Assembly (NCBI GenBank): GCA_029821635.1
Contig: JALGSW010000003.1
Location: 7,650 to 71,649, forward strand
DNA from: Candidatus Zipacnadia bacterium
GTDB taxonomy: Bacteria; Armatimonadota; Zipacnadia; Zipacnadales; UBA5352
DNA: 64,000 nucleotides
Reading direction: 5' to 3'
Positions within the stretch are counted from its first letter, which is position 1; the number at the start of each line of letters is the position of its first letter. The translations under genes were made by a program, and so were the position numbers. Below the pieces are notes generated by a model. It made no database searches and was not told where the DNA came from. It saw only the letters and a list, made by a program, of their open reading frames with translations. This document shows, in pieces, positions 45,957 to 64,000 of the stretch.

Positions 45957-48900
45957 TCAGCCACCGGCACCTTCCCAGTCGACCTCATAGTGCCACTCGT
46001 GGAGCCGCCCGGCCGGCCGGCGCCCAAGGTCGTTGGTGATGATCACCCGATCGATCCCGAACTCCTGCATGTGCGACTCCGAGACCGTCAGCGTATGTGG
46101 CCCCGGCTCCAGGTGGAAGCGCACCGGCAGCTCGCGACGCATGTCGTAGACGAAGCGCCAGATGCTCGTGTCGTTCAGGCCCGAGCCCGCCGGGCGGTCC
46201 GGGAAGCGGCAGAGCAGGTCGTTCTTCCGGCCCCCGTCCATCGCTGCATTCAGGTAGGCGTAGCCGCGGTTGCTCACCGGGGAGAGCTTCAGCCACGCGA
46301 TGTACTCGCCCGCCACCGGCGCCTCGAACTCCAGCTCCAGCGTCGGGAACACCTGCGCGTCACCCTCGCCCTGCGGGGCCATCTTCACGTAGCGCCCACC
46401 GGATGCCTCGGCGTCATCGACCATCTCTCCGAGCCCGCCCACCGTCCCGTCCTCGGCCTCCAGCGCGACCTGCACCGGACCGCCCTCGATCGGGAGCGTC
46501 TGCACGCGCAGCGCTGGCGTCGCGGTGGACTCGTTCCCGAACGAGTCCACCGCCGCGACGCGGTACCAGTACTCCCCGCCCGCCTGCAGCCCCCAGTCGG
46601 CGAACTGAGCCCTCGCCGGTGAGCCGACGAGGCTCGCCTGCGTCGCCTCGAGGTCAGCTGATGAGCCACGGTGGACCTGGTAGTGGTCCGCGTCCGCGAC
46701 GACCTCCCAGGCGATCTGCGTGTCGAACTGCCGCGCGTCGGTCAGCGCCAGGCCACCCGGTGTCGCGGGCGGATCGGGATCGATCTGCTGCCTGCCTGCC
46801 GGCTCGAATCCGGCGTCGTCGGTCAGCAGCAGCTTGTCGATCGCGAGGCCCGGATCGCGCGCCACGATGGCCACCTGCGTACCGCCTTCGCGTGCGGGCA
46901 CCGGCGCCTCCAGCCGCACCCACTCCCACTCCCGCGAGCCGCTCTTCAGCGACCCGACCGCCTGCCCGTCCGCGCTGACCGTCCAGCCCGCATCCGGCGC
47001 GCCCGAGCCCTGGAAGCGCATCCGCGCCCAGAGCGTATGCGGGCCGGCGTTGCGCGTGCGGAAGCGCCACGTCGCCGAGCCCTCGGTCTCGCCGTCGCGG
47101 TAGTCCACGAACAGCAGGTTGCTCGCCGAGCCATGCAGGTTCTCCCGCACAGGCGCGACCAGCTCGCCCGCCTCCGCTTCGACGAAGAGCCGCTCCGGGG
47201 CGGCCGCGTCGGCCGCTCCGCCGACCGCTTCCCCGGCGTGACGGTGACTCTCCAGCCCGGACCGTTCCACGGCCGTGACCACGTAGTACCACGTGCGGCC
47301 CGCATCGGGCGGCGTGTCGCTGAAGGCCTGCTCGGTCACCGGCTCATCGTTCACCCGCGTGTAGCCCACGCCGCTGAGGTCGCTGCGATAGACGTTGTAG
47401 CCGAGCAGTTCCGCCGCGCGCTCAGGGCGTTCCCAGCTCAGTCGGACGGTCGTACCGTCGGTCTGGGCGCGTACGGTGCTCGGAGGCTCGGGATACGAGA
47501 TCACGCACCAGTAGACGTCGATCGACCCCAGCATCGAGGACATGTACGCGCCCTTCGTGCCGTCCGGGCTCGTGTTCGCGAAGAGGTTGGACTTATACTC
47601 GTTGCTCGCGGTGTTCCCGTAGGCGACTCGGTACCAGGTCCCGTCCGTGTAGACCTTGATGAGCTGACTCGCGAACGGCCCTGAGAGCGCTGCGCCCTGC
47701 GTCCCGGCCAGGAACCAGTCGTTCTGGTACATCCAGGCGATGTGCCCGCCGCCTGCGCCGGGGACGAGGATCTGTCCCTCCCACTTGTTGTAGTCCCACA
47801 GCGCGACCGCACCGCCGTGGTAGCCGCATTCCAGCGTCCCGTCGGGCGAGCGGCCGCCGTGGCTGTAGAGAGGCTGCGGCTCCGCGCCCTCCGGCTTCCC
47901 AAGCGCCATCCGGTTCATCCCGACCGTTCCGTCCAGCGACGAGAGCCGCTGCTGGTAAGGGTGCTCTTCGGAGAGGTGAGGTAGGTGATTGAGCGAGTAC
48001 CCGATCCACCACTCCCCGCGCAGCTTCGTCAGGCCCGCGCTGTAGAGCCAGTCATCCTTCGGGTCGCCGGTCGAGTCGGTCGTGATCGGGATGCGCGTCC
48101 ACTCGCCGGTCTTCAGGTCCACGTAGTACAGCGGCGCATCCGGGCCGAAGCCCTGCTCGTAGTAGACCAGCCCCGGCAACTCCATGTTCCAGCCGAAGGC
48201 AGGCCGCCCACCGTGCTTGATCTCGTCCGGGATGCGGAAGACCTCCTCCTGCTCGCGCGTGCGCCAGTTCACGCGCATGACCGCCTCGCGGGTTCCGTAG
48301 TAGAGCCAGTCCGGCTCAGAGCCCCAGCGCGGCGCCCGGTTGGGCAGCTCGATCCCCAGCGCACGGAACGACGCGCCGCTCGGATCGGCAATGAAGTAGA
48401 GCGGCCCCGGTCGCTCCCACGCCTTGAGCATGAACGCGCTGCCATCCACGTTCCAAGGGTATCGGTTCGAGTAGGTGATGTCGCCCGAACTCCAGTCGCG
48501 GTCGATGCGCCGGATCTCAGTGCCCGTCCCGGTGTCGGTGAAGATCAGTCGCTCGTCATGGTAGCGCCCATCCTCGTCGGCCAGCAGGTCGTGCGGCTTC
48601 ATCTCGACCAGCTCGCCGGCGGCGGCTGTCAGTTGGTGCACGATGTCCGCCTCCGGCACCTGCGCCGGGACGCCGAGGTCGGTCAGCTCCACGCGACGGA
48701 TGAACATCTCGCCCGCGCTCTCGCGCTCGAATGCGAACATCGTGGAGAGCAGGCTCACGCCCTTCGGCAGGTCGATCTCTGCTGCGAAGCTGCGGAACTC
48801 ATCGCTGAGCCTCGCGGGGAGCGGGATGTAGCCGTCGCCTCTGTCGGAGCGCCAGGAGAAGATCAGGTTCGCGGCGCCGTCGCCGCGCATCTCCGCAAGG

Positions 48901-49823
48901 AGCCGGTAGCGATGCCCGCCGCGCACAGTGGTGTTGCAGTATGCTCGCGGGAGCAGGCTGCCCTTCGCCTCAGCGTTCTTGTGCAGGTGCAGCACGTTCG
49001 CCCCATCGAGGCTCTCCTGCCGCACGAAGCCCGTCTCGGCCTCCTCGGGCCGCCAGCGCAGCGCGGCCGCCCAGGTCGGCGGCAGGCCCTTGGCGGTCGC
49101 GTCGCTTGCGAAGTCGCCGTTGCGCAGCAGGTTTGTGCCGCCGAAGTAGAGGTAGCCCCACGCGCTGGGGTCGTGGTAGCCGCCGGGGCAGTAGCTCCAC
49201 GAGGTGAAGCCGCCCCGGCCGCGGTCGCCGCCGCGCGCCCAGAGGCTGCGCGCGATCTTCAGTCCCCACAACTCCCCGCGCAGCGGCGTCTCGGCGCCCA
49301 GCGCCGCGAAGGGGATGGCCGCCTCGGAGGTCCAGCCGTCCGCGTGTCGCTGCACCGCCACGGTCCAGTCAGGTTTGGGGTTCCACGCGGTCGGCATGCC
49401 CGCCACGCCCTGCAGCGCGTCGTGGCGCGCGCCCGAGACGTTGTGGATCAGGTGGAAGTACTCCATGCCGCCGAGAGCAGGCGTCAGGAATAGCTCCACG
49501 CTGTCATCGCGCCAGATCTCTTCATGGTCACGCTCGCGCTCCGGCGCTCGGATGGCGTCCATCGCCGGCTCGTCGGCCTCCACAGCCACGTAGAGCGCGC
49601 GGTCATCGTACGCGACGCGCACGCGCGTCTGGATCGGGGCATCCGTGTGCGAGCCGGTGTACATGAACGGCTCGGTCACCTGCGCGTTCTGCCAGGTAAC
49701 CTCGTCGAGCACTCCGTCCACGGTCACGGCCGCGTCGGGTGTGGCGATGATCTGCCGCGGCTGCTCGCCATAGGTGAAGGTCGCTGCAAGCAACGTGGCG
49801 CTGATGACGATCGTTGTGCGCAT
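45957..49823 (-). CDS. Large secreted multidomain carbohydrate-binding protein (CBM9-like, CBM4-like, beta-propeller, FN3 and CBM modules)
   Basis: Signal peptide, VDGVLDE..W, DDSVELFL, GWTSEAAIPF, NLLRNGDF, TDTGTGTEIRR...YSNRYPWNVDG, YCSPDGTK-like NTSPDGTK, FN3 GYNVYRS/YYVVTAV, EAEAG/EAEDG modules. Confidence 0.75.
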   Translation of the reverse strand: MRTTIVISATLLAATFTYGEQPRQIIATPDAAVTVDGVLDEVTWQNAQVTEPFMYTGSHTDAPIQTRVRVAYDDRALYVAVEADEPAMDAIRAPERERDHEEIWRDDSVELFLTPALGGMEYFHLIHNVSGARHDALQGVAGMPTAWNPKPDWTVAVQRHADGWTSEAAIPFAALGAETPLRGELWGLKIARSLWARGGDRGRGGFTSWSYCPGGYHDPSAWGYLYFGGTNLLRNGDFASDATAKGLPPTWAAALRWRPEEAETGFVRQESLDGANVLHLHKNAEAKGSLLPRAYCNTTVRGGHRYRLLAEMRGDGAANLIFSWRSDRGDGYIPLPARLSDEFRSFAAEIDLPKGVSLLSTMFAFERESAGEMFIRRVELTDLGVPAQVPEADIVHQLTAAAGELVEMKPHDLLADEDGRYHDERLIFTDTGTGTEIRRIDRDWSSGDITYSNRYPWNVDGSAFMLKAWERPGPLYFIADPSGASFRALGIELPNRAPRWGSEPDWLYYGTREAVMRVNWRTREQEEVFRIPDEIKHGGRPAFGWNMELPGLVYYEQGFGPDAPLYYVDLKTGEWTRIPITTDSTGDPKDDWLYSAGLTKLRGEWWIGYSLNHLPHLSEEHPYQQRLSSLDGTVGMNRMALGKPEGAEPQPLYSHGGRSPDGTLECGYHGGAVALWDYNKWEGQILVPGAGGGHIAWMYQNDWFLAGTQGAALSGPFASQLIKVYTDGTWYRVAYGNTASNEYKSNLFANTSPDGTKGAYMSSMLGSIDVYWCVISYPEPPSTVRAQTDGTTVRLSWERPERAAELLGYNVYRSDLSGVGYTRVNDEPVTEQAFSDTPPDAGRTWYYVVTAVERSGLESHRHAGEAVGGAADAAAPERLFVEAEAGELVAPVRENLHGSASNLLFVDYRDGETEGSATWRFRTRNAGPHTLWARMRFQGSGAPDAGWTVSADGQAVGSLKSGSREWEWVRLEAPVPAREGGTQVAIVARDPGLAIDKLLLTDDAGFEPAGRQQIDPDPPATPGGLALTDARQFDTQIAWEVVADADHYQVHRGSSADLEATQASLVGSPARAQFADWGLQAGGEYWYRVAAVDSFGNESTATPALRVQTLPIEGGPVQVALEAEDGTVGGLGEMVDDAEASGGRYVKMAPQGEGDAQVFPTLELEFEAPVAGEYIAWLKLSPVSNRGYAYLNAAMDGGRKNDLLCRFPDRPAGSGLNDTSIWRFVYDMRRELPVRFHLEPGPHTLTVSESHMQEFGIDRVIITNDLGRRPAGRLHEWHYEVDWEGAGG

Positions 49824-49840
49824 GGTCGGTTGCCTCCCGG

Positions 49841-52800
49841 CTATCCTTCGAGCATCCTGAACGACTTCGCGTCCACCGTCAGCGTGAACTCCCCGCCATC
49901 GACCTCCACGCTCTCATCGCTGATCACGTCTGTCAGCGGGCCCCTCGGGCGCACGGGTTCGGCGAGCTTCACCGTGACCTTGCGCGTCTCCTCGGTCAGG
50001 TTCGAGACGATCAGCATGATCCGCCCATCGCGCTCGTAGAAGCTCGCGACGATGCGCGGGTCCTTCGGCGTGAGATCGACCAGGTCGGCGTTCTCCCAGT
50101 AGCCGTGGAAGGTCGCCTCCCCGATGCCAAAGCGCGCCTGGGAGCCCCAGACCTTCTCCAGCAGATCCAGCGCAATGTGCCCACGCCGGCCTATTGGCGT
50201 GCCGTGCGGGAGGAGCACCGCGAGCGTGTCGAACATCTGCCGGCGCTCCATCTCGTCGTCCGTGCGGTCGGTCGTGACGAGCCACATCGGCACGACGCCC
50301 CACTGCGTGGCCATGTTATGCGCTCGCCAGAAGTCCAGCGGCAGCATGTCCGAGAGGAATGCGTCGCCGGTGCGTAGCGGCCCCTGCACCATCTCGCCCT
50401 CCCAGTTCGCGGTTGCGAACGAGAAGCATGGGGTCGCCATCTTCCCGTCGGCGTGAATCCAGATGATCGGGTCCTCGACGCGCGCGCTGAGCGCGATCCA
50501 CAGGCGCTTGTAGAAGTCGCGCAGCCCGAAGATCGGGTATTCCAGCGCGCGCCCGCCGCCCTCCGCCACATAGCCGTGACCGTGCAGTTCGTTGGCGCAG
50601 GGCACAGGCGGCCCGGCGCCGTCGAAGTAGACGCCGTCCACCCCGTACTTCTGCACCCAGCGGTCGATCCCGTAGAGCAGGTAGTCCGCGAATGTGCTGC
50701 CCGGGCAGGCGCCCATGATGACCCGATCGCCGCCGCCGATCTGGCGCGGCGAAGTGATCTGCCACGCGTCATAGTAGCGATCGTAGTCGGTCGCGCCCTT
50801 GCTCACCCCGTGCAGGTACAGGTAGGGGACCACGCGCGCTCCGCGCTCGTGCATCTGCGTCGCGAAGTCGCCGAGGGTGTCCATCACGTCCAGCGGCGCG
50901 GTGTGCAGGTTCGCGTACAGTGGCTTCGCTCCATCGCTGAACCACAGGTAGCGCCAGTTGATCGGCACCCCCTGCTCCTCCCATCGCTCGTCGTGCGTCA
51001 TCTCGTTGCGTTTCGGCCAGACGCGATCGACGCGCCACGCCCGCCAGTCCTCCGGCACGGGCTTGACCGGCGTCGCCTGCAGGCCGAAGGTGATCTGCCG
51101 GTCGGTCAGCTCGGTCGGCACGTTCACCAGTTCGACCACCAGCTCGGTCGCGCCGTCGGTCCTGCGCACCGAGATCGGCGCGCCCTCGTAGCTCCACCCG
51201 CCGGCCGACTCGGCGAACCACATCAGCCCGCGCTCGTTGTCGCCCAGCCAGACGAAGGGCTGGAACGCCATCGAGAGCCCGTCCGCCGGTAGTGTACCCG
51301 CGAAGCCCCGCGCGTAGTAGGACGAGCAATAGTTGTAGTACTCCGCGCGCTCGGGCTTAACCGGCACCACCAGCCGCAGGCCCTCGACCGCCACCGGATC
51401 GGGCGCGAGGATGCACAGATCGTAACGGATCATCCCGTCGAACTCAGCGCTCGTGGTCACCAGCGCCTGCAGCCCGCCAAGATCGCAGGTCGCCGTGTAC
51501 TTGCAGTCAATCTCGCGCTCGCGAATGGCGAGGCGCTCGCCCAGCGTCAGCAAGCTGGTCTCGCCTCCCCGGTCGATCTCCAGCCGCACCGGTGCCGCGA
51601 GCAGCTCCTCACCAGCGGCCGTCGCCTGCGCCAGAAGCGGCTCATCGCCCAGCACGTAGCTCCGCCCCCAGCACTCGACCGTTCCCGGAGCGTAGGCCAT
51701 CGGCGTCCAGGGCGTCGGCACGGCGTCCGTTCGCCCGAGCCGCGTGCCGCGCGTATACCACTGCGGCGGCTCGCGCCGCTCCCATGCGAACTGCCCCGAG
51801 CGAAGCACCTCGCCGCTCTCGGGATCGACGATCCGCCAGTCGCAGTCATACTCGCCGACCGGCCAGTCGCTCACGTCCTGATGGGCGTAGCGCCCGGCGC
51901 CGGACGCGAGCCCCTCGTGCGCGGCAGTGAACAGCGCCTCCCCGTCGCGCTGCTTCGCGCGCAGGAGCAGATCCAGGCGCTCCTGCGGGAAGCCGCGCAG
52001 GTCCGCCCGGACCCACGCGAAGCGCTCCGACGGGTGCGCCAGCAGCTTCACGTATTCGGGCTCCTTCGCCACGAGCGGGACGAACTGGCGGTAGCTGACG
52101 GCGCCCTCGGCATCGGCTGTCGCGATCGCCAGCAGCTTCCGCCCCTCCGGCCCCGACTTGAGTGGCAGGCTGAACATTTTTTGACCGCCGGGCGACATCG
52201 TCCAGGTGCGGCGCTCGGGCCAGTCGGTATTGTTGGGCGATGGGGCGGTGCGCTCGCGCGCCGGGCCGAACGCCTCGAGATCCGCGCCGACGGACATCCG
52301 CCCGCCGTCGACGCCGGTCATCATCATCGAGCCATCGACGGTCACGAGGCCTTCCTGGGAGCTGTCGATGCCCGTCACCTGCGAGATTGGCCCGTTCTCG
52401 GCGAACCGCAGGTAGCCCCACAGCGGCGGGTTGTTGTAGCCGCGCACCGTGTATGCCCAGGCGGTGGTCACGCCGGCGGAGCGCGCGAATTGCGCCCGCC
52501 AGGTCTGCCCGGCCGGGACCTCGACGCCGAGTTCGCTCCACGCGACCGCCAGCTCCGCGCTCCAGTGCCCGCGCTCGACGCGGTTCACGAACTCCCAGTC
52601 GGCGTCCCACGCCTTGTCCGCGCCGCGGCGGTCGAAGATCGTGCCGGCGGAGTTGCCGATCATCTGCAGCGCGTCCGCCTCGCCGCCCTCGGGCAGCAGG
52701 TATATCTCCACCGAGTCGTCGGCCCAGACGCTGGCATCGCGCTCCATCACAGAGGTCCGTGGCAGCGCCTCGGCATCGACCGGCAGCTCGAACGCCACGT

Positions 52801-53056
52801 AGAGGCGATCGGCGTCCCAGGCGACGCGCACGACCGTCTGCACCTCGGCGAGGTTCGCGTCGGCGATGTTGATGAAGCCGGTGGCGGCGCCCGCGAAGCG
52901 CCACTCGATGGGATCGACCGTGCCGTCGATGGTCGGTGGGACGGTCGTGCGCCCCGCGGAGAGCAGCGGCGGCGGCGCGTCCATCAGCGGCGTCTCCTGC
53001 GCCGATGCGCACGCGAGTGCGATCAGACAAAGGGCCGCGGGTAGAAGCTTCCTCAC
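49841..53056 (-). CDS. Secreted CBM9-like plus DUF6067-type glycoside hydrolase-like protein
   Basis: PTIDGTVD, DDSVEIYL, WSAELAV, WGRSY, EFDGMIRYD, ATPVKP, YGVDGVYFDG. GTG start with GGGAGG RBS. Confidence 0.75.
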   Translation of the reverse strand: MRKLLPAALCLIALACASAQETPLMDAPPPLLSAGRTTVPPTIDGTVDPIEWRFAGAATGFINIADANLAEVQTVVRVAWDADRLYVAFELPVDAEALPRTSVMERDASVWADDSVEIYLLPEGGEADALQMIGNSAGTIFDRRGADKAWDADWEFVNRVERGHWSAELAVAWSELGVEVPAGQTWRAQFARSAGVTTAWAYTVRGYNNPPLWGYLRFAENGPISQVTGIDSSQEGLVTVDGSMMMTGVDGGRMSVGADLEAFGPARERTAPSPNNTDWPERRTWTMSPGGQKMFSLPLKSGPEGRKLLAIATADAEGAVSYRQFVPLVAKEPEYVKLLAHPSERFAWVRADLRGFPQERLDLLLRAKQRDGEALFTAAHEGLASGAGRYAHQDVSDWPVGEYDCDWRIVDPESGEVLRSGQFAWERREPPQWYTRGTRLGRTDAVPTPWTPMAYAPGTVECWGRSYVLGDEPLLAQATAAGEELLAAPVRLEIDRGGETSLLTLGERLAIREREIDCKYTATCDLGGLQALVTTSAEFDGMIRYDLCILAPDPVAVEGLRLVVPVKPERAEYYNYCSSYYARGFAGTLPADGLSMAFQPFVWLGDNERGLMWFAESAGGWSYEGAPISVRRTDGATELVVELVNVPTELTDRQITFGLQATPVKPVPEDWRAWRVDRVWPKRNEMTHDERWEEQGVPINWRYLWFSDGAKPLYANLHTAPLDVMDTLGDFATQMHERGARVVPYLYLHGVSKGATDYDRYYDAWQITSPRQIGGGDRVIMGACPGSTFADYLLYGIDRWVQKYGVDGVYFDGAGPPVPCANELHGHGYVAEGGGRALEYPIFGLRDFYKRLWIALSARVEDPIIWIHADGKMATPCFSFATANWEGEMVQGPLRTGDAFLSDMLPLDFWRAHNMATQWGVVPMWLVTTDRTDDEMERRQMFDTLAVLLPHGTPIGRRGHIALDLLEKVWGSQARFGIGEATFHGYWENADLVDLTPKDPRIVASFYERDGRIMLIVSNLTEETRKVTVKLAEPVRPRGPLTDVISDESVEVDGGEFTLTVDAKSFRMLEG

Positions 53057-59939: not shown

Positions 59940-62336
59940 ATGCGCCGATTCCGGACTGCTGCAGCTTTCACGCTCGTTCTCATGGTCCTTACCGCGCCGG
60001 CAATGGCGCAGTTCCCGCGTCTTCCTGACCTCGGCGACGTCGTAGGTGACGTCCTCAAGGGCAAGATCCCCGGGCTCAACAAGATACTCACAGAGGAGCC
60101 CGCGATCTCCACCACCTTCGATGACGCGGTCTTCGGTGTGCCGCTGCTTGATGATCTCAGTCCCTTCATCACTGCGCCGATGTGCCAGCTCCCCGACACC
60201 GGCGACGGCGCCTTCATCGTCGCGGTTCCGGGCATGTACGAGCTGGACGCGCGCTCGTATTGCCTGCACGCGGGCACCTACGGCCCCGGCCAGGGCGAGG
60301 GCTACCTCTGGGCTCCGCTCAAGGGTGACCTCGCGGGCGTCATCCAGGACGTGCTCGACCGCTCGATGGCGCACCCGGAGCTTGCGCAGGACAAGGTTCA
60401 GTCGCTGATCTGGGCGATCCAGTCGCGCGCGAAGATCAATGACATGCCCACGGAACTGCGCGACGTCGCGCAGGTGCTGCTGGATAAGAAGCAGATCCGC
60501 CGCCTGAACGGTGGCGCGCTGGGCCTGATCCCCGACGAGCTGATGGACCAGGCGTTCGTCGACATCCCCGACGAGGTGCGGATGGTGCTGGAGGCCGAGG
60601 CGAGGCTGCGCGATCGCCTGCGCCAGGAAGTCTACGACTTCGACGCGCTCGAGGAGGTCGCGGTGCTCGCCGGCGACCCGGCTCCGACCGAGGGCGGGGC
60701 GGTCATCCCCGACGGGCGCTGGTCCTTCGAGCCCGGCGGCTTCTTCGTGCGCTTCAGCCCCGATGGCTACCCGGAGACGAAGCTGCAACTCTACGCACCG
60801 GAGCCCTTCAGGGCCATCGCCGACGAGGCCGGCCGCATCACCTCGCTCATCGACCGCAGAGGGAACACGATCGAGGCCATCTACGCCGCGACCGGCCCGC
60901 TGGTCGCGCAGGGCGACCCGAACGTGGCCGCGCACGTGCTGCAGAGCATCCGGCTGATCGCCGCGGGCGGGCAGGTCGTTGACCTCAGTTGCCTTCCCGG
61001 CGACGCAGTGCTCACCGGAGTGCCCTCGGGTGGTGGCGCCTTTACCGGAGACCTCAGCGCGCTTTACGCGGCAGGCACTTCCGCGCTGAGCGACGTGCGC
61101 GAGCTTGCGCGTAACGTCGACGGCGCCTCGCCCGACTCGCCGCTGGTCGGCAACGTGCTCAACCTGCAGCAGTTCGCGAACGCTCTCGGGCGTCTCGCCG
61201 AGCGCGAGGGCGTCGCGAACGTGGACCTCAGCCGGTGGGAGGCGATGGGCCGCGAGGCGGTTGCGTCGGAGCTGATGCTGCTGCTTGAGGGCCGCGAGAG
61301 CGACACGGCCTTCCGCGACCCCGAGGAGCGCACGCGGCTCGCCGTGCTGCCGTGGGCCACAGGAACGGTCCTCGACATCGGCCAGGCCTCATGGGGCAAT
61401 CCCGGCGGCGGCTTCTTCAGGCCATCCCGCGGCAGCGGCACCCCGGCGAGCCGCGATCGGCAGCGCCTGGGCATCTCCGGCGGCTCACGCCAGATCCCGA
61501 CCTATCGACCCGACACGAGTCCGGACGAGGACGACGGCGACGGCCCGTCCGGCGGTGATGGCAAGGGCGCGATGAACCGCGCACGCAAGGCCATCGATGC
61601 GATCCAGAAGGGCAAGGACGTCGTGGACTTCGTGACAAACCCCGTTGGGACGCTTGCGGGGAAGATCGGTTTGGGCCTTCCGAACGCGCTCTTCGGCAAG
61701 ATCCTGGACTTCAACTTCGACGCGTGGGGCAAGGCCTCGAAGGCCCTCGGCGGCGACCCGCCTGTCCCGGACTACGATCAGATTGCCATGCCCGAGCCGG
61801 TCTCACTGCCGAGCTTCACGCCCGCCGCCGGGGTCTCGATGGAGCACACGATGGCGGTCGAAGCGCTCTCGCAGGCGCTGGCGGAGAATCTGGCGATCGT
61901 GCGCGCGGCGAACATCACGGAGGACCGCCTCGGCGGCGCACTGGCCGCCAACGATGACGAGTGGGTCACGCTCCAGGCGGCGCAGCTCATCGAGTACAAG
62001 CGCCAGGCCGGGCAGGGGATGATGCAGATCTCCGATGACCTTACGGCGGTGCTGCAGGCCCTGCGCAACGCGGGCGTCAACGACATCACGGTGACCCCCG
62101 CCGCGGTGATGGCCTACCAGCAGCGGCTGCAGGCCACGGGCTGGGACGCTGATGAGCTTCAGGCCGCGCAGATCCTCGGGATCGGCCCGGCGGAGTTGCA
62201 GGAGATGCTTGCTGAGCGTATCGCCGCCGACCCGAGCGAGGTCGCGGGCAGCGTGATGGAATCGCACGATGAGCTGGCCGAGGCGCTCTGGTGGTTCGGG
62301 ATGAGCCTCTCAAACCTGCCCCCGCCCTCGCCGTGA
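59940..62336 (+). CDS. Secreted protein with thioester-domain-like motifs
   Basis: GGAGGT RBS, signal peptide, SYCLHAGT and VQSLIW motifs, a YD-like segment, helical C-terminus. Confidence 0.6.
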   Translation: MRRFRTAAAFTLVLMVLTAPAMAQFPRLPDLGDVVGDVLKGKIPGLNKILTEEPAISTTFDDAVFGVPLLDDLSPFITAPMCQLPDTGDGAFIVAVPGMYELDARSYCLHAGTYGPGQGEGYLWAPLKGDLAGVIQDVLDRSMAHPELAQDKVQSLIWAIQSRAKINDMPTELRDVAQVLLDKKQIRRLNGGALGLIPDELMDQAFVDIPDEVRMVLEAEARLRDRLRQEVYDFDALEEVAVLAGDPAPTEGGAVIPDGRWSFEPGGFFVRFSPDGYPETKLQLYAPEPFRAIADEAGRITSLIDRRGNTIEAIYAATGPLVAQGDPNVAAHVLQSIRLIAAGGQVVDLSCLPGDAVLTGVPSGGGAFTGDLSALYAAGTSALSDVRELARNVDGASPDSPLVGNVLNLQQFANALGRLAEREGVANVDLSRWEAMGREAVASELMLLLEGRESDTAFRDPEERTRLAVLPWATGTVLDIGQASWGNPGGGFFRPSRGSGTPASRDRQRLGISGGSRQIPTYRPDTSPDEDDGDGPSGGDGKGAMNRARKAIDAIQKGKDVVDFVTNPVGTLAGKIGLGLPNALFGKILDFNFDAWGKASKALGGDPPVPDYDQIAMPEPVSLPSFTPAAGVSMEHTMAVEALSQALAENLAIVRAANITEDRLGGALAANDDEWVTLQAAQLIEYKRQAGQGMMQISDDLTAVLQALRNAGVNDITVTPAAVMAYQQRLQATGWDADELQAAQILGIGPAELQEMLAERIAADPSEVAGSVMESHDELAEALWWFGMSLSNLPPPSP

Positions 62337-62347
62337 GAGTAGCATTC

Positions 62348-62455
62348 GTGGGGCGGGCTTCCAGCCCGCCAGCCAGACACACAGCGGCCCCGCCCGATTG
62401 ATCGGGCGGGGCCGTGACCTTTCGGCCTCCCCGTGGCACGGGCGTCTCGCCCGTG
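62348..62455 (+). repeat. Composite REP cluster (class A REP, 14-bp hairpin, class B REP)
   Basis: GTGG-GGCGGGC-TTCCA-GCCCGCC (62348-62370), CGGCCCCGCCCGAT/ATCGGGCGGGGCCG (62385-62414), GTGG-CACGGGC-GTCTC-GCCCGTG (62433-62455). Confidence 0.7.
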
Positions 62456-62539
62456 CAGCCGTCTGCATACCATGAAGGGAACCCCACATCGCCCCGCGAA
62501 CCTCCCCGCACACGAAGCGTACCGAAGGGGGAGCCCACC

Positions 62540-64000
62540 TTGTCTCACCCGGTAGAAGACTACCTCAAGCGCCTGCGTGACATCCACGTCACCGGCGCGG
62601 CCACCGATGAGACCTCGTACTACGAGCCGCTCGCGACGCTGCTGAATGCCATCGGCGACGAGCTCGACCCCGAGGTGCGCTGCGTCATGCAGCTCGCCAA
62701 TCGTGGCGCGGGTATCCCGGACGGCGGCCTGTTCACCCGCGAGCAGATGCAGTCCGGGGCCGCGGCCGAAATCCTCCAGGGCGGCCGTCCCGCGCGCGGG
62801 GTCATCGAGGTCAAGGGCGCGGGACAGGCCATCGACGCCGTCGCGGAGGGCGCTCAGGTCGCCCGCTACTTCGAGAAGTACCGCCAGGTCCTCGTCACCA
62901 ACTACCGCGAGTTCGTCTTCCTCGGCCAGAACGTCACTGGCGAGCGCAAGGAGTTCGGCCGCTTCAGCTTCGCCGCCGGCGAAGACGAGTTCTGGGCGCT
63001 CACGCAGACTCCGCGCAAAGCCGCCGACGAGCACGGCGCGCGCTTCGTGGACTTCATCCAGCGTTTCATGACCCACGCCGCCCCGCTGTGCGATCCCGAG
63101 GACGTCGCGTGGCTGCTCGCGTCCTACGCCCGCGAGGCGATGGCGCGCGTCGATGAAGCCGATATCCCCGCGCTGCAGTCGCTCCGCAAGGCGCTGGAGG
63201 AGGCGCTCGGGCTCACCTTCGAGGGCGAGGAGGGCGATCACTTCTTCCGCTCCACGCTCGTCCAGACGCTCTTCTACGGCATCTTCTCCGCATGGGTCAT
63301 CTGGTCGCGCGAGCACGACCCCACCTCCGGCGACCGTTTCGACTGGCACGCCGCCGAGTGGACGCTGCACGTGCCCATGATCGCCGCGCTCTACCAGCAG
63401 ATCGCCCAGCCCGGCAAGCTCCGCTCGCTGCATGTCGTCGAAGTGCTCGAATGGACCGCCGACGCGCTCAACCGCGTCGACCGCGCCTCGTTCTTCGACC
63501 AGTTCGACGACGGCCAGGCCGTCCAATACTTCTACGAGCCCTTCCTGCAGGCGTTCGACCCGGAACTGCGCAAGCAGCTTGGCGTGTGGTATACGCCCAC
63601 CGAGATCGTGCGCTACATGGTCGAGCGGGTGGACCGGGTGCTGCGCGAGGAGCTTGACATCGCCGACGGGCTCGCGGACCCGAACGTCTACGTCCTCGAC
63701 CCCTGCTGCGGCACCGGCGCCTACCTCGTGGAGGTCCTGCATCGCATCGAGCGGACGCTGCGCGAGCGCGGCGCCGACGATATGCTCGCCCACGACATCA
63801 AGCAGGCGGCGAGGGAGCGCGTCTTCGGCTTCGAGATACTCCCCGCGCCCTTCGTGGTGGCGCACCTGCAGATCGGGCTGACACTGCGCAACCTCGGCGC
63901 GCCGCTGTCGCATGAGACCGAGGAGCGCGCGGGCGTCTACCTCACGAACGCATTGACCGGCTGGGAGCCGCCGGATGAGACGAAACGTGCCCTGCCCTTC
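62540..64000 (+). CDS. Type IIG / Type ISP-like restriction-modification enzyme (nuclease + N6-adenine MTase), 3' end off window
   Basis: Manual translation from TTG with GGGGGAG RBS: SHPVEDYLKRLRDIH...ETSYY, GIPDG...IEVK (PD-ExK), YFYEPFLQAFDPELRKQLGVWYTP (motif X), VLDPCCGTGAYL (motif I), PFVVAHLQI, VYLTNAL. Confidence 0.88.
   Translation, partial: MSHPVEDYLKRLRDIHVTGAATDETSYYEPLATLLNAIGDELDPEVRCVMQLANRGAGIPDGGLFTREQMQSGAAAEILQGGRPARGVIEVKGAGQAIDAVAEGAQVARYFEKYRQVLVTNYREFVFLGQNVTGERKEFGRFSFAAGEDEFWALTQTPRKAADEHGARFVDFIQRFMTHAAPLCDPEDVAWLLASYAREAMARVDEADIPALQSLRKALEEALGLTFEGEEGDHFFRSTLVQTLFYGIFSAWVIWSREHDPTSGDRFDWHAAEWTLHVPMIAALYQQIAQPGKLRSLHVVEVLEWTADALNRVDRASFFDQFDDGQAVQYFYEPFLQAFDPELRKQLGVWYTPTEIVRYMVERVDRVLREELDIADGLADPNVYVLDPCCGTGAYLVEVLHRIERTLRERGADDMLAHDIKQAARERVFGFEILPAPFVVAHLQIGLTLRNLGAPLSHETEERAGVYLTNALTGWEPPDETKRALPF

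Follow-up and report, generated by a model that had tools for sequence, protein, structure and literature searches.

A candidate divergent thioester domain with variable C-terminal tails in a putatively secreted protein of Armatimonadota

The gene at 59940-62336 and the layout of its product

The DNA considered here, referred to as the window, is a stretch of 64,000 nucleotides from a Candidatus Zipacnadia bacterium of the phylum Armatimonadota (assembly GCA_029821635.1, contig JALGSW010000003.1, positions 7,650 to 71,649). Near its end lies the gene of a protein, P0001, which combines a Sec signal peptide, an N-terminal core with an invariant cysteine, an optional insert, a beta-hairpin with an invariant glutamine, a disordered linker and an all-helical C-terminal domain (Table 1). 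The arrangement of its conserved motifs recalls the thioester domains (TEDs) of Gram-positive adhesins, and P0001 is presented below as a candidate new variant of these domains, not as a demonstrated member of the family.

The reading frame opens with an ATG placed 7 nt downstream of a GGAGG ribosome-binding site, and the gene is present in a single copy in the window's genome. The signal peptide reads MRRFRTAAAFTLVLMVLTAPAMA, followed by Q as the first residue after the cleavage motif, and a hydrophobic N-terminus is also found at the start of the homologues; judged by this N-terminal sequence, P0001 is exported via the Sec pathway. Searches with P0001 returned only noise from NCBIfam and no relative among the PDB sequences. 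The first-pass annotation of this DNA, made from the letters and their translations, had stated that neither an LPXTG anchor nor a Cna/Ig stalk is present, and both readings agree with it: Pfam detected no Cna, Ig or Gram-positive anchor domain, and the C-terminus, ending in ...SNLPPPSP, contains no LPXTG. An LPDTG string fitting the sortase LPXTG pattern occurs at residues 84-88 of the N-terminal domain (60189-60203). Being internal, replaced by other strings in homologues (LPFTG, LPATG, LPRGP and others) and not followed by a hydrophobic or charged tail, it was rejected as a sorting signal and is considered incidental.

The AlphaFold2 model of P0001, built on a 116-sequence alignment, is confident (mean predicted local distance difference test, pLDDT, 85.3; predicted template modelling score, pTM, 0.85). 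Its core consists of beta strands, a helical subdomain of seven helices and a further set of strands (262-294), with KVQSLIWAI corresponding to residues 152-160 and including Gln154 and Trp158. The segment resembling RHS/YD hairpins begins with DEAGRITSLIDRRGNTIEAIY (residues 295-315), holds only about six strands and is missing from short family members. Foldseek matched it weakly to Rhs cores (E = 0.2-0.3 over ~120-130 columns), and the Pfam model RHS_repeat (PF05593) gave weak matches in 10 of 61 relatives (best E 0.005) and none in P0001. Compared with the PDB at full length, the model yielded weak helical-bundle and Rhs matches. Since family members have between 27 and 308 residues separating core and final hairpin, the RHS-like hairpins and the three-helix bundle that follows them are regarded as an optional insert.

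Past the insert and a disordered stretch (468-486), the model forms a hairpin (strands 498-502 and 510-516) with pLDDT > 90 between disordered flanks. Gln508 stands just past the turn of this hairpin, within PASRDRQRLG (residues 502-511). The linker, IPTYRPDTSPDEDDGDGPSGGD, then leads to the 'type-1' tail, whose conserved residues include D606-P-P, D662-R-x-G-G-A and G734. Mean-field direct-coupling analysis (DCA) on 221 sequences, the top contacts of which are physically sensible, links the Gln508 hairpin to the N-domain through the pairs 58-501, 60-503, 105-515, 109-513, 112-509, 139-511 and 143-514, with 500-513 also among the hairpin contacts. The hairpin is thereby placed beside the Cys strand and helices 132-161, and the contacts 110-157, 110-161 and 107-142 set the Cys segment against helix 150-161. 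The conserved module thus comprises the core and the returning hairpin, with the Gln508 motif as its final element. All parts of the layout described in the first-pass annotation, namely SYCLHAGT, KVQSLIWAI, the hairpin segment, PASRDRQRLG, the linker and the helical C-terminal domain, were located, and its distance of about 45 residues between the first two motifs agrees with the 46 counted from Cys108 to Gln154.

Table 1. Features of the P0001 locus (window coordinates; residue numbers refer to P0001)
Feature	Position	Strand	Description
P0001 gene	59940-62336	+	798 codons plus stop; intact open frame
Sec signal peptide, residues 1-23	59940-60008	+	Sequence read directly; cleavage motif A-M-A before Q
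Conserved N-terminal core, ~residues 40-296	60057-60827	+	AlphaFold2 pLDDT mostly > 90; conservation extends over at least 1,391 clusters; unmatched in Pfam and the PDB
SYCLHAGT, residues 106-113	60255-60278	+	Cys108 at nt 60261-60263, end of strand 98-108 (DSSP)
Helix motif Q150-D-K-V-Q154-S-L-I-W158-A-I	60387-60419	+	On helix 150-161; counterpart of the TED TQxxΦW helix
RHS/YD-like beta-hairpin segment, residues 295-360	60822-61019	+	Model strands 300-359; first part of optional insert
Three-helix bundle, residues 371-449	61050-61286	+	Model helices 371-391, 402-423, 428-449; second part of optional insert
P-Q beta-hairpin, residues 488-518	61401-61493	+	Returns to the N-domain; A-x-P-x-x-x-x-x-Q508-R-L-G-x-S; Gln508 at nt 61461-61463
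Acidic Gly-rich disordered linker, ~residues 519-537	61494-61550	+	pLDDT < 50 over 519-534 and 536-539
C-terminal all-helical domain ('type-1' tail), residues 538-798	61551-62333	+	Model helices 538-791; no Pfam or PDB match
Four co-oriented genes upstream of P0001	53445-59814	+	325 aa; 477 aa, CBM9_1-like; 510 aa, Trypsin_2; 810 aa
Two very large open reading frames	45957-53056	-	1288 and 1071 aa; CBM9-like, fn3 and GH123_N-like domains
Three GC-rich hairpins	62352-62456	.	Inverted repeats 62352-62370, 62385-62414, 62436-62456; after the P0001 stop

Distribution, invariant residues and tails of the family

A word-indexed search retrieved 116 relatives of P0001. Those with 54-66% full-length identity come from metagenome-assembled genomes (MAGs) under the label Armatimonadota or candidate division WS1; for remoter ones, likewise MAG-derived, the labels include Acidobacteriota and Gemmatimonadota. 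The family comprises at least 1,391 clusters at 50% identity: exhaustive profile searching of 1.84 billion cluster representatives gave this number at E ≤ 1e-3, with 782 of them at E ≤ 1e-30. Within the window's phylum the family is found in 49 of 301 genomes (31 of 158 genera), mostly as a single copy. The distribution of homologues, which the first-pass annotation had named as a check, is broad and spans several environmental phyla. Two genomes of the same phylum show several partial family matches lying head to tail on one contig (G495:C201:525-5769 and G572:C636:5719-9822), which could be tandem copies or fragmented genes.

All 221 aligned members share Cys108, Gly129, Gln154, Trp158 and Trp261, and Gln150 is kept in 98% of them; in a separately made MAFFT alignment, each of the 114 sequences extending over this position has Gln508. 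The helix motif takes the form (V/I)-Q154-x-L-(I/L/V)-W158, with Val or Ile where TEDs have Thr, and its Gln follows the Cys at a rigid spacing of 46 residues. The other cysteines of P0001, at positions 82 and 351, vary within the family. An invariant His is lacking as well: 89 of 116 sequences keep His110, and the other 27 have K, R, Q, A, D, E or M in its place.

That a secreted protein has a single invariant Cys could point to a new Cys enzyme, of a transglutaminase-, amidase- or peptidase-like kind, that forms no stable thioester and for which the Gln508 hairpin would act as a cis substrate, pseudosubstrate or lid. The conserved polar residues D62, D71, S106, Y122, R224, E238, R260, R271, Y277 and D295 would suit such an activity, as would a fold unmatched in the PDB, and the several peptidase-like tails described below supply a hydrolase context. 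A classical Cys-His catalytic dyad was nevertheless rejected for want of an invariant His, which makes a classical Cys-His hydrolase unlikely, and no invariant Lys is available either to activate the Cys. The Cys moreover stands at the end of a strand, whereas in papain or transglutaminase folds it occupies the N-terminus of a helix, and an enzymatic role would leave the similarity in TED register unexplained. We therefore regard the enzyme explanation as doubtful.

The sequence after the Gln motif is the most variable part of the family, ranging from 9 to ~340 residues. About 22 members stop 9-14 residues past the Gln, including complete genes inside long contigs, which identifies the Gln motif as the end of an autonomous module. 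Selenocysteine or another recoding event, considered for relatives recorded with one TGA inside, was rejected, the TGA being the natural stop of these tail-less variants. The 199 longer tails sort into 46 clusters unrelated to one another. The type-1 helical tail of P0001 accounts for 65 of the 199, and a conserved HExxH context is present in 55 (28%), counting DUF922-type tails. Other tails match the Pfam families DUF922, VanY, Peptidase_C70, AMOP, Stig1 and FecR. A group of tails of ~145-200 aa with the pattern '(A/C)xHE(K/R/Q)xHQxxC' has no Pfam match (for example P0037, P0045, P0055, P0074, P0079 and P0101); by its motif, this HExxH-context region is a candidate for a new small zincin-like domain.

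Such a diversity of endings behind one module and motif, with HExxH, VanY, Peptidase_C70 and DUF922 tails among the 46 clusters, is reminiscent of polymorphic toxins and Rhs effectors, which likewise join a conserved N-terminal part, RHS/YD-like hairpins and a junction motif to many unrelated C-terminal domains, peptidases included. The N-domain might then target or translocate the protein, and QRLG-S might be an autoproteolytic or protease site releasing a variable effector; the RHS-like segment would fit this explanation. P0001 differs from these systems in having few hairpins, no Rhs cocoon and no aspartyl autoprotease motif, and its family differs in lacking a linked secretion system. No immunity-like or secretion-system gene is conserved downstream at six loci (the window, L004, L005, L006, L028 and L029), where unrelated housekeeping or other genes are found instead. 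Many members without cargo nonetheless keep the motif, and the motif is part of a strand confidently docked on the N-domain, not of an exposed linker. A toxin carrier is accordingly highly unlikely.

Comparison with thioester domains

TEDs are characterised by three motifs (PMC4450167; PMC6194298). The first, [YFL]C-hydrophobic-hydrophilic, lies on a strand and contains the bond-forming Cys. The second, TQxxΦW, lies on the central helix; hydrogen bonds run from this Gln and this Trp to the backbone of the Cys, but both residues are dispensable for bond formation. The third, the weak ΦQζΦΦ of the last strand, supplies the bond-forming Gln. In class II TEDs an insert of ~75 residues precedes a P-Q hairpin, which returns to the head domain and contributes this Gln, and the Cys-to-Trp spacing of EfmTIE86 is 58 (PMC6194298).

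Counterparts of all three motifs, the third of them a candidate, occur in the P0001 family in the same order and the same secondary-structure context, the helix motif being placed on the second helix after the Cys. The first is S-Y-C108-L-H at a strand end; the second is Q154xxΦW158, with a Cys-to-Gln spacing of 46 residues against 48-52 in the PF08341 TEDs that were fetched. The third would be Gln508, whose x-Q-R-L-G context leads into strand 510-516; the residue before this Gln is not hydrophobic, and the alignment is of low confidence.

Among known systems, class II TEDs (BaTIE, 6FWV; SaTIE, 6FWY; EfmTIE86, 6FX6; TIE-pLS20; PF08341) are the closest in design, sharing a [YF]C-hydrophobic-hydrophilic motif at a strand of a secreted N-terminal module, a QxxΦW helix ~46-58 residues after the Cys, an invariant Gln that follows closely on the turn of the P-Q hairpin closing the domain, and a domain-sized insert ahead of that hairpin. 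This insert is an Ig-like sandwich in class II TEDs, whereas in the P0001 family it is optional and made of RHS-like hairpins and three helices. The family further differs in its larger helical subdomain, in the absence of LPXTG and of isopeptide or ester stalk domains, in the variable enzyme-like tails that come after the module, and in its occurrence in MAG-derived Armatimonadota, WS1, Acidobacteriota and Gemmatimonadota as opposed to Firmicutes and Actinobacteria; its thioester is a proposed one. With class I TEDs (SfbI, 5A0L; CpTIE, 5A0G; PnTIE, 5A0N; Cpa) the family has in common the three-motif logic and the proposed chemistry, that is, a Cys-Gln thioester, loss of NH3 and capture of an amine. 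Class I TEDs, however, possess an extra helix alpha-0 and no insert, and their Cys-to-Gln distance of 129-153 residues contrasts with ~206-230 in the shortest members of the family and 400 in P0001. Complement C3 and alpha-2-macroglobulin share only the concept of a Cys-Gln thioester that deposits a protein covalently on a target surface; their fold and motif (CGEQ in an alpha-alpha toroid TED) are unrelated, and no similarity to them was found.

Profile comparison was carried out against two reference sets, the pLS20 TIE adhesin with 74 relatives, and 17 PF08341-positive open reading frames from Bacilli genomes that include an orthologue of the solved BaTIE (6FWV, E = 2e-164) and a relative of SaTIE (6FWY). 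With hhalign, the 116-sequence family profile matched the second set, of PF08341-type or BaTIE-type TEDs, at P = 9e-4, and the 221-sequence profile matched it with a score of 36.6 (P = 2.4e-4, probability 44%), in a register that sets Cys on Cys and QxLIW on TQLAΦW. This similarity to a type of TED that has been validated by experiment is weakly significant. Two block-shuffle controls never attained the real score, in 0 of 100 shuffles (z = 5.2) and in 0 of 200 (null 18.2 ± 3.9, maximum 33.4, z = 4.7). With a merged TED profile, Gln508 was set, at low confidence, on the TED thioester Gln of 'TVQNAT'. Independently of hhalign, the Pfam model PF08341 matched family member P0082 at E = 0.009 (16.9 bits, below the cut-off of 22) over profile positions 2-99 of 102, the match covering residues 133-210 and starting at Cys135, and a second member matched the Pfam TED model at E = 0.16. 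PF08341 had no match in the window's genome or in the control genomes.

Several results weigh against a TED assignment. P0001 itself has no Pfam match at E ≤ 10, be it to PF08341 or to PF20610 and PF26764, TED-associated models precomputed on pLS20-type TED adhesins, and no family member exceeds the gathering score of the Pfam TED model, P0082 being the best. Against pLS20-type TEDs alone, hhalign gave P = 0.1-0.14, hence no support, and as a positive control two true TED groups found each other at a probability of 98.7% (E = 4e-16), far above anything seen for the family. The family profile produced only noise and no TED when compared with PDB sequences; the copy searched by sequence contains 6FWV and 6FWY. 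Foldseek searches of the PDB with the models of full-length P0001 and of the minimal homologue P0086 recovered no TED and nothing below E = 0.02; the N-domain of the P0086 model has pLDDT > 90, and its matches were noise, for example beta-lactamases at template modelling scores < 0.2. The TED fold, a beta-barrel with a three-helix bundle superimposable on solved TEDs, was not found in P0001, whose helical subdomain has seven helices in place of three. Finally, in the antiparallel DCA ladder 105-515, 109-513 and 112-509, Gln508 faces Gly112/Thr113 and Cys108 faces approximately residue 512, an offset of about four residues that falls short of demonstrating bonding distance.

These negatives could be explained if the N-terminal module were a non-covalent binding or scaffold module, in which Cys, Gln and Trp serve core packing, redox or metal binding and the likeness to TEDs is convergent or accidental: neither the structural nor the Pfam searches put the domain in the TED family, and the hhalign probability stays below 50%. 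Such a module would not readily account for three collinear invariant motifs with TED spacing, for an independent Pfam near-match that begins exactly at the Cys, or for block-shuffle z values of 4.7-5.2, and it would be unusual for an exported protein to keep a single buried Cys invariant for structural reasons alone. We hold this explanation to be unlikely.

If a thioester is formed, the partner of Cys108 has to be chosen, since DCA sets both Gln508 and Gln154 near it. The first-pass annotation had proposed Gln154, of the QxxIW motif, which would leave Gln508 with a structural or ligand-binding role. Both residues of that pair are indeed invariant, Gln154 in 221 of 221 sequences, and the couplings 110-157, 110-161, 110-135 and 107-142 set Cys108 level with helix residues ~152-154, so that Gln154 is probably the spatially nearest invariant Gln. 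The pairing nevertheless runs counter to precedent: in every characterised TED the helix Gln, which only hydrogen-bonds the Cys backbone, is dispensable and does not form the bond (PMC4450167; PMC6194298), the role being given to the Gln of the last strand. Its collinear counterpart here is Gln508, inside the PASRDRQRLG that the same annotation had listed as a separate motif, and a Cys108-Gln154 bond would leave the invariance of Gln508 unexplained. We consider this bond quite unlikely.

The explanation that we favour, and the single most likely one, is that the N-terminal module (~residues 40-296 plus hairpin 488-518) is a very divergent relative or a close functional analogue of TEDs, acting by a TED-like mechanism with Gln508 as the preferred partner; its probability is put at roughly 45%. 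The mechanism that we infer, including the thioester itself, the choice of Gln, the target and the role of the tail, would begin with an attack by the thiol of Cys108, at its strand end, on one of the invariant glutamines, at the amide of its side chain. Gln508, where the second hairpin strand starts, is the most likely partner, and Gln154 on the adjacent helix is the alternative. NH3 would leave and a buried internal thioester would form, with Gln154 and Trp158 packed against the Cys and holding it in position, a part played in TEDs by the TQxxΦW residues. A nucleophile of a target surface, an amine or possibly a hydroxyl, would then open the thioester and end covalently bound to the Gln. As Gln508 lies directly ahead of the flexible linker, capture would tether whatever C-terminal domain follows.

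The evidence for a distant TED relationship is moderate. P0001 is not filed as a TED family member, because its similarity is weak beside that among true TEDs, because Foldseek recovers no TED and because the DCA geometry is indirect. The TED claim is best described as a well-motivated hypothesis, since the structural searches lend no support to fold identity and the chemistry is one that we infer. The initial proposal is thus borne out in part: the motifs, their spacing, the in-register profile alignment and the P0082 near-match are TED-like, and the architecture is as it had stated, whereas Pfam membership and a Foldseek match to the TED fold were not obtained.

A wider reading, which we advance tentatively and with somewhat less confidence, is that the family represents a third structural class of TED with a Cys108-Gln508 thioester, widespread in phyla that are classed as Gram-negative (Armatimonadota, WS1, Acidobacteriota and Gemmatimonadota), which would covalently attach swappable C-terminal enzymes (HExxH, VanY, C70, DUF922) to targets. 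By analogy, such a protein would perhaps resemble complement in concept, as a means of 'covalent deposition', and not a cell-wall-anchored adhesin.

Neighbouring genes and wider significance

The four genes upstream of P0001 have ends that overlap or abut. The 325-aa protein has no Pfam match, the 510-aa Trypsin_2 protein shows a weak YbjN-like C-terminus, and the N-terminus of the 810-aa protein weakly resembles the galactose-binding part of beta-agarase/YXIM proteins. The order is maintained at L004, the locus of a 65%-identical relative, with products of 322, 469 (CBM9_1), 511 (Trypsin_2), 801 and 807 aa, and these genes may form an operon that serves to process polymers outside the cell. 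The two very large frames on the opposite strand probably encode secreted glycan-active proteins, to judge by their domains. The Trypsin_2/CBM9 cluster and the nearby secreted proteins with CBM9- and GH123_N-like domains together suggest an extracellular polymer-processing neighbourhood. Distant homologues of P0001 stand alone.

Next to the protein, the first-pass annotation had placed a repetitive extragenic palindromic (REP) cluster and a restriction-modification gene. The former was not confirmed: the three hairpins differ from each other and the largest arm has no significant recurrence in the window, so they are likely terminator-type structures at the end of transcription and not a REP family. 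The latter holds in so far as the downstream open reading frame (62414-64000) has an N6_Mtase domain, but the gene is not conserved beside the homologues. As neither the N6-methylase gene nor the hairpins are conserved neighbours, both appear unrelated to P0001. The GTG start listed for this frame at 62414 overlaps the hairpins, and a TTG at ~62541, preceded by GGGGGAG, looks more plausible as a start (MSHPVEDYLKRL...). At a single locus, L029, the gene of the HExxH-tailed P0055 lies between those of a TIR/AAA_16/TPR protein and a HEPN protein, a pattern absent from the other loci, and this locus may belong to a defence-island neighbourhood.

TEDs were confined in the original survey exclusively to Gram-positive Firmicutes and Actinobacteria (PMC4450167), and in the literature to October 2026 thioester 'harpoons' are still described only for adhesins of these Gram-positive groups (PMC13685950; PMC4450167). 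A TED-like module in the phyla reported here would be new in dispensing with sortase anchoring, in its optional RHS-like and helical insert and in its interchangeable enzyme-like tails. Should the bond be absent, there would remain a large, confidently folded domain, unmatched in Pfam and the PDB, with an invariant Cys/Gln/Trp set in need of an explanation. Should it be present, the P0001-type module could serve as a new tool for protein ligation, and the domain would stand for a new design, with a large optional insert and a reactive Gln beside the cargo linker. Thioester chemistry would then also be known from further phyla and from secreted proteins that are soluble, and a function would be gained for well over a thousand unannotated sequence clusters.

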